A stretch of DNA of 32,000 nt. It comes from Cylindrospermopsis raciborskii Cr2010. Its GTDB lineage: Bacteria; Cyanobacteriota; Cyanobacteriia; Cyanobacteriales; Nostocaceae. Each line of letters starts with the position of its first letter. Within the stretch, counting starts at the first letter, position 1. Shown here piece after piece: positions 11,861 through 28,067 of the stretch. The position numbers and the translations under genes were made by a program. The stretch covers positions 600,001 through 632,000 of the forward strand of contig NZ_CP065936.1 in assembly GCF_003367075.2 (NCBI RefSeq), written 5' to 3'. Under the pieces are notes generated by a model that did not search any database, was not told where the DNA came from, and worked only from the letters and a program-made list of their open reading frames with translations.

Positions 11861-12550
11861 ATGGAAACTTCTCCCATCAAAGCTGTCCAAACCTCCTACT
11901 ACAGCGACAACTGGTACCGTACACCACCACCAGACCTGGCCTCCCTATTGCTAAAGGAAAGAATAGTTTATCTGGGCACACCCTTGGTTTCTCCAGATGA
12001 ATATAAACGCCAAATGGGGGTTGATGTCACCAAGTTGATTATTGCCCAACTACTGTATCTCAAATTTGACAACCCAGACAAACCCATCTTTTTCTACATC
12101 AACTCTACAGGTACATCTTGGTACACTGGAGATGCTATTGGCTATGAAACGGAAGCCTTTGCCATTTGTGATACCATAGACTACATTAAGACTCCTGTAC
12201 ATACTATCTGTATTGGTCAGGCCATAGGTACAGCAGCACTTATTCTCTCCTGTGGGACTAAAGGGTTTCGTGCCAGTTTGCCCCATGCTACAATAGTTCT
12301 CAATCAACCTCGTAGCGGTACAAGAGGTCAGGCTACGGATATTCAAATTTATGCCAAGGAAGTCCTGGCCAACAAAGCAGCAATTCTAGACATTTTCTCC
12401 AAAAACACGGGACAGCAACCGGAAAAAATCTCTAAGGATATGGAAAGAATGTTCTATTTGACTCCACAAGCTGCCAAAGAATACGGTTTAATAGACCGTG
12501 TTTTAGAAAGTATGAAGGATTTGCCTAAACCCCTGCCCATCCCTGTTTAG
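11861..12550 (+). CDS. clpR: ClpR, a non-catalytic ClpP-like subunit
   Basis: ClpP fold, but all three catalytic residues are replaced: Ser to Gly (QAIGTAA), His to Asn (IVLNQP), Asp to Met (MERMFY). It has the ClpR-type N-terminus (YRTPPPDLASLLLKERIVYLG) and an insertion of about 9 aa after INS. Confidence 0.85.
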   Translation: METSPIKAVQTSYYSDNWYRTPPPDLASLLLKERIVYLGTPLVSPDEYKRQMGVDVTKLIIAQLLYLKFDNPDKPIFFYINSTGTSWYTGDAIGYETEAFAICDTIDYIKTPVHTICIGQAIGTAALILSCGTKGFRASLPHATIVLNQPRSGTRGQATDIQIYAKEVLANKAAILDIFSKNTGQQPEKISKDMERMFYLTPQAAKEYGLIDRVLESMKDLPKPLPIPV

Positions 12551-12604
12551 CACGAAAATAACCCCAATTGCTGCCCACATCTCTAGTCGTTTTTTCTTAC
12601 CCGT

Positions 12605-13249
12605 ATGTCCGTTAATGCCGCCCTCCGAGTCCCCTATAACATTCCCGGTAGTAATTCCTGGCAATGGGTAAATATATACACCCGTATGGCTCAGGAACGA
12701 ATTTTGTTTTTGAATCAGCCACTCACCACCGATCTGGCCAATTCTCTCATTTCTTCCCTGCTGTATCTTGACTCAGAGGACTCAAGCAAACCTGTCTACC
12801 TCTACATCAACTCTTTTGGTGATCCTGTTATGGCTGGTATGATTAGTGAGATGGCGGGAATGGAGTCCACTAATGCTTGTTTGGCAATTTATGATACTAT
12901 CCAACACGTTAAATCAGAAATTGTTACCATTTGCTTAGGACAAGCTGTATCCATGGCTGCTTTGTTGCTTTCCTCTGGTGCCAAGGGCAAACGGGTGAGT
13001 CTACCCCATTGCAGTATTGCTTTGGCACAGTTCCGCAGCGCTACCCGGGGTCAAGCTACGGATATTCAAGTGAATGCACAGGAGGTTCTACGCAAAAAAT
13101 CCCTGATTCTAGATATTTTTTCCCATAATACTGGACAGTCTCGCGAAAAAATCGCTCAGGATAGTGAGCGTATTTTTTACATGACCCCTCCAGAAGCTAG
13201 GGAATATGGGTTAATTGATCATGTCTTAGAAAATACTAAGCAGCTATAA
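12605..13249 (+). CDS. Second ClpR-like ClpP paralog with a partly degenerate catalytic triad
   Basis: ClpP fold. The Ser position is retained (QAVSMAA), but His is replaced by Ala (IALAQF) and Asp by Ile (SERIFY). An insertion of about 14 aa follows INS (FGDPVMAGMISEMAGMESTNACLAIYDT). Confidence 0.75.
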   Translation: MSVNAALRVPYNIPGSNSWQWVNIYTRMAQERILFLNQPLTTDLANSLISSLLYLDSEDSSKPVYLYINSFGDPVMAGMISEMAGMESTNACLAIYDTIQHVKSEIVTICLGQAVSMAALLLSSGAKGKRVSLPHCSIALAQFRSATRGQATDIQVNAQEVLRKKSLILDIFSHNTGQSREKIAQDSERIFYMTPPEAREYGLIDHVLENTKQL

Positions 13250-13296
13250 CCCACAGATAAAGTACATCTAAACCCTAATTATTCTATTAAACCGTC

Positions 13297-13881
13297 ATGC
13301 CCATTGGTATTCCCAAGGTTCCCTATCGTCTTCCTGGTAGTAATTACGAGCAATGGATTGATCTAGAGGATCGTCTATTTCGGGAGCGAATTATTTTCCT
13401 CACTGAAGAGGTGGATGATGGTATAGCTAATGCCATTGTTGCCTATCTACTTTACTTAGATTCCGATGATCAGACTAAGCCGATTTACCTGTATATCAAT
13501 TCCCCTGGTGGATCTGTAACTGCAGGAATGGCAATTTATGATACTATACAGTACATTAAATCGGAAGTCGTTACAATTTGTGTTGGTTTAGCTGCTTCCA
13601 TGGGATCATTCCTCCTAGCTGCTGGAGCGAAGGGTAAACGTTTAGCTCTACCCCATTCCCGAATTATGATTCACCAACCTTCCGGTGGTACTCGTGGCCA
13701 AGCTTCTGACATTGAAATCGAAGCTAGGGAAATTCTACGTATCCGTCATCAGCTCAACCAAATTTATGCTGACAATACTGGTCAAGTCCTATCTAAAATT
13801 GAAAAGGATATGGATAGGGATTTCTTTATGTCAGCCCAAGAAGCCAAAGAATATGGTTTAATTGACCGTGTGATCGAATAA
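13297..13881 (+). CDS. clpP: ATP-dependent Clp protease proteolytic subunit ClpP (ClpP3-like, catalytic)
   Basis: Intact Ser-His-Asp context: [25 protein letters not shown]. It is the third gene of the tandem clp cluster. Confidence 0.9.
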
Positions 13882-15561: not shown

Positions 15562-15873
15562 TTAATAACGACGGTCGCGACCACCACCGCCAGAACGTCC
15601 TCCTCCCCAAGTACCCTGGGAAGATCTTTCTTCACGGGGTCTAGCCTTGTTTACTTTTAGTTGTCTACCCATCCATTCTGCACCATTTAAAGCATCAATT
15701 GCTGCGTTCTCTTCAGCTTCACTGGACATATCTACAAAACCAAACCCCCGTGGACGACCTGTTTCCTTATCAGTAGGTAGCTGCACTTTGCTCACGTTGC
15801 CATATTTAGAGAAAGCACTTTTCAGATCTTCTAATGTCACATCATAGGACAGGTTTCCAACATAAATCGACAT
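15562..15873 (-). CDS. RRM-type RNA-binding protein with a glycine-rich C-terminus (cyanobacterial Rbp)
   Basis: RNP2 motif IYVGNL and RNP1 motif RGFGFVDM, with a C-terminal [15 protein letters not shown] chose the ATG at 15873 ([10 protein letters not shown]) over the ORF-track start at 15891. Confidence 0.9.
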
Positions 15874-16049
15874 AAAGTAATGGTCTCCCAAACCGACAGT
15901 GTAGAGAGTTAGATTCGGAGAGACGCATTAAAGTAATTTTAAAACGAATTACTCAACCGAAAATAATTCTTTTATCCGTAAGTATAGCATAGTTTTTGGC
16001 GATGAACTTAAAAATGAGTAACATTTTCTCAAAAAGTTTTGCTTTAGTG

Positions 16050-26521: not shown

Positions 26522-26762
26522 TGTTAACAGTTAGGTGTTATTATTCTGGATCTCAGACACATCCTAGCCTAACTCCAGTTGATCAGACTATTTTTCCAGT
26601 AATTTTCTCGACATTTTCAGCAATTAGTCACAGGCATCTCCTTTACTCTATTCTTAACTTACTGAGTACAACCGCAAAATTGGGGAGAATATTCTCCCAA
26701 GAATTAACTACCATATTTTATGGGTTTTCACAAGAAAATCTCCCGCCTCGATAACGATTAAA

Positions 26763-26791
26763 TTGTCAATACCACATTTGTTTGTTATAAT
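26763..26791 (+). promoter_or_regulatory. Near-consensus sigma70-type promoter upstream of ssb
   Basis: TTGTCA (26763..26768), a 17-nt spacer, then TATAAT (26786..26791). This is 43 nt upstream of the ssb ATG. Confidence 0.4.
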
Positions 26792-26833
26792 GTAACCGCA
26801 TTTCTTTTTGGAAACAAGGTAACGGTAACACGA

Positions 26834-26897
26834 ATGAGCATTAATGTTGTCACTCTGGTGGGACGTGCTGGCGGCGATCCCAGTATCAAGTATTTTG
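26834..26897 (+). CDS. ssb: Single-stranded DNA-binding protein, exon 1 (codons 1-21 plus the first base of codon 22)
   Basis: The ATG at 26834 gives MSINVVTLVGRAGGDPSIKYF, the canonical SSB N-terminus. Without splicing, the frame hits a stop 4 codons past the junction (..GATR*). Confidence 0.8.
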
Positions 26898-27637
26898 GTG
26901 CGACCCGTTAAATGGGAAACCAAGCCCTAGCCTGGAAACCATTACAAGGATGTGGCTGTGTGCCTACTTCACCTTGAAACTTAGCTCCTGAGAGGGTGAG
27001 ATTTCTAAGCAATGTGAGAAAACTATAACAAATGTCAAGAAATGCTCATAGATTAAAATCTTTAACAAGCTTCTTAGAACTTCAATTCCCTCCTTCTAGA
27101 TGCCAGAAGATGCAACGCCCCCACTTTTGGGACTGACAATCACCAAGGGTGAAGCGGGGAGTAAAGGAGGTAACTTTGAACCTGGCAAGGAATCCCTCCG
27201 AGCAGAGATGGGTATGAGTAAGGTAATCTGAATCTATGTTGGAGCCGTCGTTATTGATATCAGCCTACACAGGTTATTGGCTGTGCCAAAAGGCAAGGAT
27301 TTGGGCTAGGCAATCCAAAATTTGACCTAGGGCATTCCCGCATAAACCCGGCGGATAGTAGGACTCTAACCCCATCGTCAAGCAGGAGCTAGGAACGGGA
27401 TAACCCCCCAATTTCTCTCTCAATTTTCTATTGCTGAGTAGGGAGTCACCCGCATGATTTTGGGGGGAGGGATTGGCTCAGAAGCCAAGGCCTTTGGGAA
27501 AGCCAAAGGATATGCAGACAGAGCCACAATAACTCAAAATACGTCCCATTGAGTTATTGAGGAGCCGTGTGCGGTGAAAGTCGCATGCACGGTTTTGAAG
27601 CAGAGGTAACCAGGGTGACCTGTTTATCGACTGTAAC
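26898..27637 (+). mobile_element. ORF-less group II intron (ribozyme only) inside ssb
   Basis: The 5' end is GTGCG (26898). Domain V is GAGCCGTGTGCGGTGAAAGTCGCATGCACGGTTT (27562..27595), with the AGC triad and a GAAA loop. A 9-bp hairpin (27529..27557) sits where a minimal domain IV would be. The 3' end is ..CTGTAAC. No ORF of 60 aa or more lies inside on either strand. Confidence 0.8.
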
Positions 27638-27936
27638 AGTCGGGAACTGTTAAGTGCGATTTGACTTTAGCAGTTAATCGCAGAACTCGTAATAGTGACC
27701 AACCAGATTGGTTTAATCTGGAAATCTGGGGCAAAACAGCAGAGGTGGCTAATAATTATGTCCGCAAAGGTGCATTAATTGGTATTAAGGGTTTTCTTAA
27801 GTTTGATACCTGGAGCGATCGCCAGACCGGTACAAACCGTTCTAAGCCCGTCATTCAAGTAGAACAACTAGAATTACTAGGTTCTAAACGAGATAGCGAA
27901 GCTGGGATGGCTGATACAGCAGCGGAGAACTTTTAA
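27638..27936 (+). CDS. ssb: Single-stranded DNA-binding protein, exon 2
   Basis: Joining G(26897) to AG(27638..27639) makes GAG (Glu) and reads ..KYF-E-SGTVKCDLTLAVNRRTRNSDQPDWFNLEIWGKTAEVA.. in frame. The spliced CDS is 363 nt (120 aa), a short OB-fold-only SSB. The ORF track reports only a TTG-started fragment from 27661. Confidence 0.85.
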
Positions 27937-27976: not shown

Positions 27977-27993
27977 ATCTGTATTTATTCAAG

Positions 27994-28067
27994 GGCGAAC
28001 GATGGGACTTGAACCCACGAGTGGTGGAACCACAATCCACTGCCTTAACCACTTGGCTACGCTCGCC
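27994..28067 (-). tRNA. tRNA-His (anticodon GUG) with a genomically encoded G-1
   Basis: I folded the cloverleaf by hand. The acceptor stem is GCGAGCG/CGTTCGC and an extra 5' G pairs with C73. The anticodon arm is GTGGA-TTGTGGT-TCCAC and the T arm is GTGGG-TTCAAGT-CCCAT. No CCA is encoded. Confidence 0.9.

Follow-up and report, generated by a model that had tools for sequence, protein, structure and literature searches.

The ORF-less group II introns of chloroplasts and plant mitochondria, which lack an internal open reading frame (ORF), are immobile, splicing-only elements of chloroplast-like (CL) lineage that sit in conserved genes, have been inherited vertically over long periods and are under selection to splice. 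In bacteria, group II introns that lack an ORF were reportedly found by Meng, Wang and Liu in 2005 in conserved DNA-replication and repair genes of Trichodesmium. According to a review, bacterial ORF-less introns nearly always share their genome with related introns that code for an intron-encoded protein (IEP), the single exception being C.te.I1 of Clostridium tetani, and an IEP that supports splicing in trans has also been cited, in review, for a cyanobacterium. A further ORF-less family, TeI3 of Thermosynechococcus elongatus (CL/IIB1), has been described by Mohr et al. (2010, PMC2882425). Here we report on a 32,000-nucleotide stretch of the Cylindrospermopsis raciborskii Cr2010 genome (the window), in which a short ssb gene, coding for a single-stranded DNA-binding protein (SSB) and lying next to mreB, is interrupted by a complete 740-nt group II intron without an ORF. 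We consider it highly probable that this is a functional, splicing-only intron which arose by ORF deletion from a lineage that homes to ssb.

The locus resembles Trichodesmium in that, in a filamentous cyanobacterium, conserved genes for DNA replication or repair are broken by ORF-less group II introns, but the Trichodesmium introns have many related copies and an IEP in the same genome. With the organellar introns it shares the features listed above, CL membership being predicted; it differs from them in having a free-living bacterial host, a ribozyme that is fully intact instead of degenerate and no known dedicated host splicing factors. Like C.te.I1, it is a splicing-only intron and, by analogy, may have the same independence from an IEP, whereas C.te.I1 belongs to another intron class in another host and is known for alternative splicing. 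Like TeI3, it is of predicted CL/IIB type, arose from a parent with an ORF through one deletion inside domain IV and has good pairing between its exon-binding sites (EBS) and the intron-binding sites (IBS) of the exon. TeI3, however, keeps domain IVa and remnants of its ORF, exists in 17 copies that are mobilised by co-resident IEPs and lies mostly outside genes (PMC2882425), whereas the window intron has lost domain IVa, is fixed at one site within a conserved gene and has no known partner IEP. Our literature search found no report of an intron in ssb, and none of a group II intron of whatever kind in either Cylindrospermopsis or Raphidiopsis, and the CS-505/D9 genome paper makes no mention of introns, reverse transcriptases (RTs) or ssb; the ssb-targeting lineage thus appears to be previously undescribed. 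The features that stand out against the known systems are the complete loss of domain IVa, the long vertical persistence under strong constraint and the targeting of ssb by the lineage.

The intron occupies positions 26898..27637 (all features of the ssb locus are on the + strand unless stated), beginning with GUGCG (26898-26902) and ending in AAC. It separates exon 1 (26834..26897; 64 nt, comprising 21 codons and the first base of the Glu22 codon) from exon 2 (27638..27936; 299 nt, from the second and third bases of the Glu22 codon to the stop codon). The N-terminus MSINVVTLVGRAGGDPSIKYF is encoded from the ATG at 26834, and the unspliced frame runs into a stop four codons past 26897, inside the intron. 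Joined, the two exons form an in-frame coding sequence of 363 nt for a 120-aa SSB, with GAG (Glu22) restored at the junction. This conceptual product matches the Pfam SSB family (PF00436, 2.5e-26; residues 3-102 against the full 104-position model, 1-104) and scores 196 bits against the NCBIfam equivalog PRK07459 (NF005674, short cyanobacterial SSB), for which the curated cutoff is 161. In a search of 5.8 billion proteins, intact 120-aa orthologues from the Nostocales (Sphaerospermopsis, Dolichospermum, Nostoc, Nodularia and others) were 73-84% identical over 100% of the length, and in an alignment of 14 SSB sequences the residues Y20, F21, E22, S23 and G24 were invariant across the junction with no gap. 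It follows that the exon boundaries given by an earlier, sequence-only reading of this DNA are exact. That reading had also placed an SSB N-terminus at 26834 and foreseen that excision would create GAG within a continuous 120-aa frame, and the spliced ORF, its family matches and the end-to-end continuity of the orthologues agree with it on both counts. Some SSB homologues covered the query only in part, and we rejected the idea that these are intron artefacts, as the proteins are intact and differ at their C-termini.

The element is a group II intron, predicted to be of IIB/CL type. The Rfam model RF00029 (Intron_gpII) matches 27560..27637 with 58.9 bits (gathering score 40; E 2.6e-9), and its model position 77 coincides with the last intron base, the 3′ splice site, in agreement with the boundaries and terminal motifs that had been read from the letters. 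The AGC triad of domain V (27562..27595) lies at 27563-65, and the domain also has a GAAA loop and a 2-nt bulge; here too the covariance model and the fold uphold the sequence-only reading. In domain VI (27599..27634), which is capped by a GUGA loop, A27630 is bulged and is the predicted branch point; seven nucleotides (CUGUAAC) follow it up to the intron end, and this A is conserved in the ssb lineage. Domain I (26904..27399) is closed by a stem at 26904-09/27394-99, followed by a second stem at 26980-91/27382-93, and contains insertions specific to the lineage at 26910-26979 together with an A+T-rich hairpin at ~26997-27087. Within it lie EBS2 (UUGAUAU, 27254..27260), which pairs with IBS2 (GUAUCAA, 26883..26889; exon positions -15 to -9, the core UAUCAA being kept in Raphidiopsis brookii D9), and the EBS1 hairpin (27306..27330), whose stem covaries across the family and whose loop holds EBS1 (CAAAAU, 27316-27321), perfectly paired with IBS1 (AUUUUG, 26892..26897; exon positions -6 to -1). 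Domain II (27404..27467) and domain III (27474..27526) follow the consensus fold and are separated by the J2/3 linker (27468..27473), in which G27470 is the gamma position that pairs with the last intron base, C27637. What is left of domain IV (27527..27559) measures 33 nt, with an 11-bp basal stem (27527-37/27549-59) and an 11-nt loop; the hairpin without an ORF had been noticed before, but as a shorter stem of 9 bp (27529..27557). With so small a domain IV and a longest wholly internal ORF of 49 aa, the intron indeed encodes no protein, as had been proposed.

Domains I-IV gave no match to Rfam models in a permissive scan of 26700..27800, in which the domain V/VI models alone matched, and the comparative evidence for them was therefore drawn from relatives. 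RNAalifold was applied to 72 non-redundant 5′ parts of family members, with partners slid by 1-3 columns as a control. The resulting consensus fold has 136 pairs arranged as domains I, II and III, which are canonical in 91% of cases compared with 36-45% in the slid controls, and compensatory double changes occur in 106 of them, so that covariation supports the six-domain secondary structure. Of the 136 pairs, 121 form in the window intron, and the minimum-energy fold of its sequence taken singly recovers most of the consensus helices. For the exon contacts, 80 distinct introns were compared with their own 5′ exons (positions -6..-1 and -14..-9) and with 1000 exon shuffles: the mean pairing was 5.54 of 6 for EBS1 and 5.01 of 6 for EBS2, against 4.55 and 4.04 for shuffled exons, and none of the 1000 shuffles reached the observed values. 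Each of the two EBS segments is at the place used by homologous introns for pairing with exons of their own, which differ from those here, and the two sites picked out in the sequence-only reading are well founded. The window intron and its R. brookii D9 orthologue pair at 6 of 6 positions at both EBS1 and EBS2, and EBS/IBS mismatches are present in the recently transferred Tolypothrix and Hydrococcus copies. In six members of the lineage, the last intron base forms G-C (three members) or A-U (three members) with the J2/3 base just 5′ of GAUUG (G27470 in the window), a gamma-gamma′ covariation that may stem from a single evolutionary event. All members of the ssb lineage begin their 3′ exon with A, which leaves EBS3-IBS3 without a covariation signal.

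The relatives also reveal where the intron came from. Searching plasmids by blastn, we found in Pseudanabaena, Gloeothece and Nostoc homology to intron positions ~250-635 that lay directly 5′ of genes annotated as ltrA (RT/maturase), and a domain III pattern run against species-representative genomes gave at least 120 loci, nearly all of them cyanobacterial. IEP coding sequence lies 3′ of domain III at 101 of the loci listed (tblastn). The closest relative among the matches listed is an IEP-carrying intron of Hydrococcus rivularis, 80.6% identical over intron positions 1-639, which is inserted in an ssb-like gene after ...VMLVGRCGQEPDLKFF. Proteins 72-98% identical to the Hydrococcus IEP occur in Tolypothrix, Xenococcus, Symploca, Laspinema, Planktothrix, Coleofasciculus and others, and in all five cases inspected (Tolypothrix, Planktothrix, Laspinema, Xenococcus and Coleofasciculus) the intron is in ssb. 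Insertion in this lineage follows ...AA(A/G)TA(T)TT(T/C)G, with A as the first base of the 3′ exon, and falls in the same Glu22 codon (G/AG) as in the window; in Tolypothrix and Coleofasciculus the interrupted gene is the mreB-adjacent ssb orthologue itself. Since the lineage homes to this exact codon, the presence of the intron in ssb reflects the target of the lineage and is no accident.

The full-length ssb-Glu22 introns align with the 5′ 635 nt of the window intron. They are inserted at the same site, are built alike in domains I-III, V and VI, place EBS1 and EBS2 at the same positions and have the same basal domain IV stem, but are 2.37-2.43 kb long and encode RT/maturases of 562-583 aa with RVT_N, RVT_1 and GIIM domains, whereas the window intron has no ORF. 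Among solved structures, T.el4h (6ME0; E 2e-103), a CL/IIB1 protein, comes closest to the IEP of these sisters (the window intron itself having none). Compensatory changes maintain the domain IV basal stem, which is GGUAACUCAG/CUGAGUUAUU in Tolypothrix, GGUGAUUUGG/CCAAAUCACU in Laspinema and AAUAACUCAA/UUGAGUUAUU in the window; in the relatives it encloses domain IVa and the 1.69-kb RT/maturase ORF, and in the window this interior is replaced by 11 nt. From these alignments, the window intron is derived from an ssb-homing retroelement by a clean deletion of the ORF and domain IVa. Among the matches listed, a domain V ~90 nt downstream of domain III is found solely in R. brookii D9, at the same ssb locus, and tblastn gave no match to the lineage IEP 3′ of domain III in this copy. 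Three other ORF-less family members, two in one metagenome-assembled genome (MAG) of Stenomitos and one on a plasmid of Leptolyngbya sp. Cla-17, have a stretch of ~180 nt separating domain III from domain V; the exons of the three copies (loci L049, L103 and L125) are similar to those of ORF-containing Stenomitos relatives. Seven more of the listed loci have no IEP match downstream, six of them without a domain V-like motif within 2.6 kb and one (L068) with such a motif ~1.1 kb downstream. A metagenome scan for further ORF-less copies with the ancestral CACGG strand of domain IV returned 0 matches, and a phage collection yielded nothing beyond a 30-nt domain V match.

Between Hydrococcus rivularis (Pleurocapsales; L088, 6175..8000) and Tolypothrix (Nostocales; L136, 3001..4692), the IEPs encoded by the ssb introns are 98% identical, and such identity between different orders points to recent horizontal transfer. 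The Hydrococcus intron is in a different ssb paralogue, with imperfect exon pairing, and two ORFs upstream of it resemble, by eye, DNA polymerase III delta/delta′. Compared with the Tolypothrix and Hydrococcus introns, those of Cylindrospermopsis and Raphidiopsis have ~29 extra nucleotides (~27022..27050) in a peripheral domain I hairpin, and the A+T-rich domain I hairpin is wholly absent in Coleofasciculus. A promoter-like match (9/12) at 27032-27059, inside the domain I hairpin, is weak and not above chance. Laspinema and Xenococcus carry a second ssb group II intron in the Glu/Lys50 codon, after WFNL or WFKL (L144, 4865..about 6335; L146, 4676..about 7285), of which the Laspinema copy retains a 219-aa RVT_N remnant alone and the Xenococcus copy encodes a 586-aa IEP with HNH; in Coleofasciculus a second ssb intron follows KTA in the Glu57 codon (L148, 4875 onward). 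The cyanobacterial ssb, a gene of 360 nt, is thus an intron hotspot with three codon sites, at times occupied by two introns at once. The domain III pattern was also seen in assemblies labelled Rickettsia, Candidatus Megaera, Rickettsiaceae, Saccharibacteria, Pedobacter and one proteobacterium (L060, L076, L082, L101, L116 and L126), two of which (L060 and L101) have nearly identical exons (…AATATTTTGA…); these non-cyanobacterial occurrences could reflect transfer or bin contamination.

The window intron is uniformly present in the Cylindrospermopsis assemblies examined and is strongly conserved. The ssb locus is 99.1-100% identical in NCBI assemblies, including ACYA01, which is probably C. 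raciborskii CS-505, and the chromosome CP091284.1 (3.8 Mb), and in several metagenomes, and the ssb plus intron region is 99.7-100% identical in 12 Cylindrospermopsis contigs from assemblies and metagenomes. An ORF-less copy is present in every Cylindrospermopsis assembly examined and in R. brookii D9 (ACYB01). Lacking an RT/maturase ORF and occupying one fixed position in all 13 genomes or contigs examined, the intron is not classed as a mobile retroelement; without an IEP it would not move autonomously, and its presence throughout the examined Cylindrospermopsis and in D9 therefore argues for vertical inheritance. Between the window and D9, 15 of the 740 intron positions differ (2.0%), none of them in domains V or VI, while in the same comparison the third codon positions of ribD, mreD, mreC and mreB differ by 16-22%, the flanking intergenic regions by 6% and 18%, and the first and second codon positions of mreB by 2.1%. 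The D9 exons are open, with 5 amino-acid changes in 120. By this comparison, the intron evolves 8-10 times more slowly than neighbouring synonymous sites, a degree of conservation which would be expected of an RNA that must fold and splice and not of a dead insertion, and the difference between 2.0% and 16-22% divergence thus indicates a constrained, splicing-only intron.

These observations can be combined into a proposed pathway. The ancestor was a mobile intron that homed between the G and AG of the Glu22 codon, from which one clean deletion took out domain IVa and the entire RT/maturase ORF (~1.69 kb), leaving the basal domain IV stem. In the present locus, transcription would begin 5′ of exon 1, EBS1 and EBS2 would hold exon 1 by pairing, A27630, the bulged base in domain VI, would attack the 5′ splice site, and ligation of the exons would restore GAG and the 120-aa OB-fold SSB; selection for splicing would then hold the whole ribozyme nearly invariant. 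The continuity of the exons, together with the sequence constraint on the intron, suggests that such splicing does take place in vivo.

Several points weigh against this interpretation. The case for splicing is built from sequence comparison, and the search for a maturase gene or sister introns in this genome covered the 32-kb window. In the introns that have been studied, domain IVa is the main anchor for the maturase, and its loss could mean poor splicing unless it has been compensated. Furthermore, exon 1 differs from D9 at 9.4% of its positions, though this corresponds to just 6 changes in 64 nt. The identity of the host gene must also be considered. In Anabaena 7120, alr0088 adjoins mreB (all0087), just as the window ssb does; its product Alr0088 resembles an SSB truncated to the OB fold, and All4779 has been proposed as the major SSB of that organism. 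Being in the same position and of the same length class, the window gene is most likely the orthologue of alr0088 and, by analogy, may not be the main SSB of the cell, which tempers the earlier inference that the SSB supply of the cell hangs on splicing. If so, a poorly expressed gene might be tolerated, but tolerance of this kind would not account for the strong conservation of the intron.

The same consideration bears on the possibility that the intron no longer splices and that the interrupted ssb paralogue is a pseudogene. Gene callers do report a 91-aa fragment or nothing at this locus, and a second, typical SSB may make the gene dispensable. However, we find this explanation very improbable, given that the intron changes 8-10 times more slowly than neighbouring synonymous sites with domains V and VI untouched, that both exons are open and in frame in two species, that EBS1 and EBS2 match the exon perfectly and that the window intron retains 121 of the 136 consensus pairs.

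If the intron is functional and splicing-only, it may rely on a trans-acting maturase or do without any IEP, and we judge the two to be about equally probable. Dependence on a maturase from another group II intron, or from a free-standing IEP gene elsewhere in the genome, has close to an even chance of being correct. It is the usual case for bacterial ORF-less introns, has been demonstrated experimentally in one cyanobacterium (cited in review) and is the mode of the ORF-less introns of Trichodesmium and Thermosynechococcus; some IEPs act as promiscuous 'drivers' (Mohr et al. 2010, PMC2882425), and filamentous cyanobacteria commonly hold many introns of this family, as the 120 or more loci, nearly all cyanobacterial, attest. 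On the other hand, the sequences examined contain no such gene, the domain IVa binding site is gone, and each genome region examined has one intron copy at a fixed position. Splicing without any group II IEP, by the RNA itself or with general host RNA chaperones and with no maturase gene in these small genomes, is a proposal that we hold tentatively and at somewhat less than an even chance. Domain IV, at 33 nt, lacks domain IVa altogether, whereas the trans-dependent ORF-less introns of T. elongatus keep it and the three other ORF-less family members keep ~180 nt. Neither Cylindrospermopsis nor Raphidiopsis appears among the named protein clusters at least 72% identical to the lineage IEP (best 120 matches), but a non-cognate IEP would fall outside these top 120. 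Similarly, no RT gene lies within the 32-kb window, over which the maturase search extended; beyond the at least 120 loci of the family scan, these genera may hold other family members. The supplementary files of two prokaryote-wide censuses of introns and RTs contain neither genus, which is at most weak evidence and in effect uninformative, since we do not know which genomes they surveyed. C.te.I1 of Clostridium tetani provides a precedent for IEP-free splicing, but nearly all known bacterial ORF-less introns coexist with related IEP-encoding introns in their genome.

Upstream of the ssb gene, a promoter-like site at 26763..26791 (TTGTCA, 17 nt, TG-n-TATAAT) ends ~43 nt 5′ of the ATG and has 11 of 12 consensus matches; it is a candidate by consensus match, and the count of such sites in the region is not above shuffle expectation. 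Downstream, a tRNA-His (GUG) gene (27993..28066, - strand) converges on ssb, and the D9 alignment stops at ~28040, inside this gene, indicating that the neighbourhood 3′ of ssb differs between the two genomes. The gene content of the window is core housekeeping, with dnaK/dnaJ, clpP genes, clpB, ribD, mreBCD and cobalamin-pathway genes; three tandem Clp protease paralogues with strong PF00574 matches lie at 11861..13881 (+ strand). The window also holds a gene for a 109-aa RRM-domain RNA-binding protein (15565..15891, - strand; PF00076, 4e-23), a candidate general RNA chaperone that nothing ties to the intron.

In public gene calls, Cylindrospermopsis and Raphidiopsis genomes have a 91-aa SSB fragment or no ssb at all, and Tolypothrix has a 91-aa fragment after the IEP; the TTG-started fragment of 91 aa noted at 27661 by the sequence-only reading is just such a piece (27661..27936). 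Short ORFs (43 aa and 32 aa) are at times called inside the intron. Recognition of the intron restores a complete 120-aa ssb gene to these annotations. Beyond this, the lineage offers a natural series of full-length mobile copies, copies with a truncated IEP and the present ORF-less copy, which could serve as a model for the passage from a retroelement to a fixed, splicing-only intron. The window intron is a non-mobile intron that has persisted over ~16-22% synonymous-type divergence with 2% change of its own, an organelle-like condition in the phylum ancestral to chloroplasts. We think it rather unlikely, at present, that Cylindrospermopsis and Raphidiopsis encode no group II maturase at all and that an intron devoid of domain IVa splices alone or with general host factors. 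Were this nevertheless true, it would be only the second bacterial group II intron to do without an IEP, and no earlier one would have been shown to last under purifying selection in a conserved gene throughout a clade of genus level. It might also be locked in place, as clean loss of an intron requires reverse transcriptase, and it would represent a free-living cyanobacterial counterpart of the splicing-only introns of chloroplasts.

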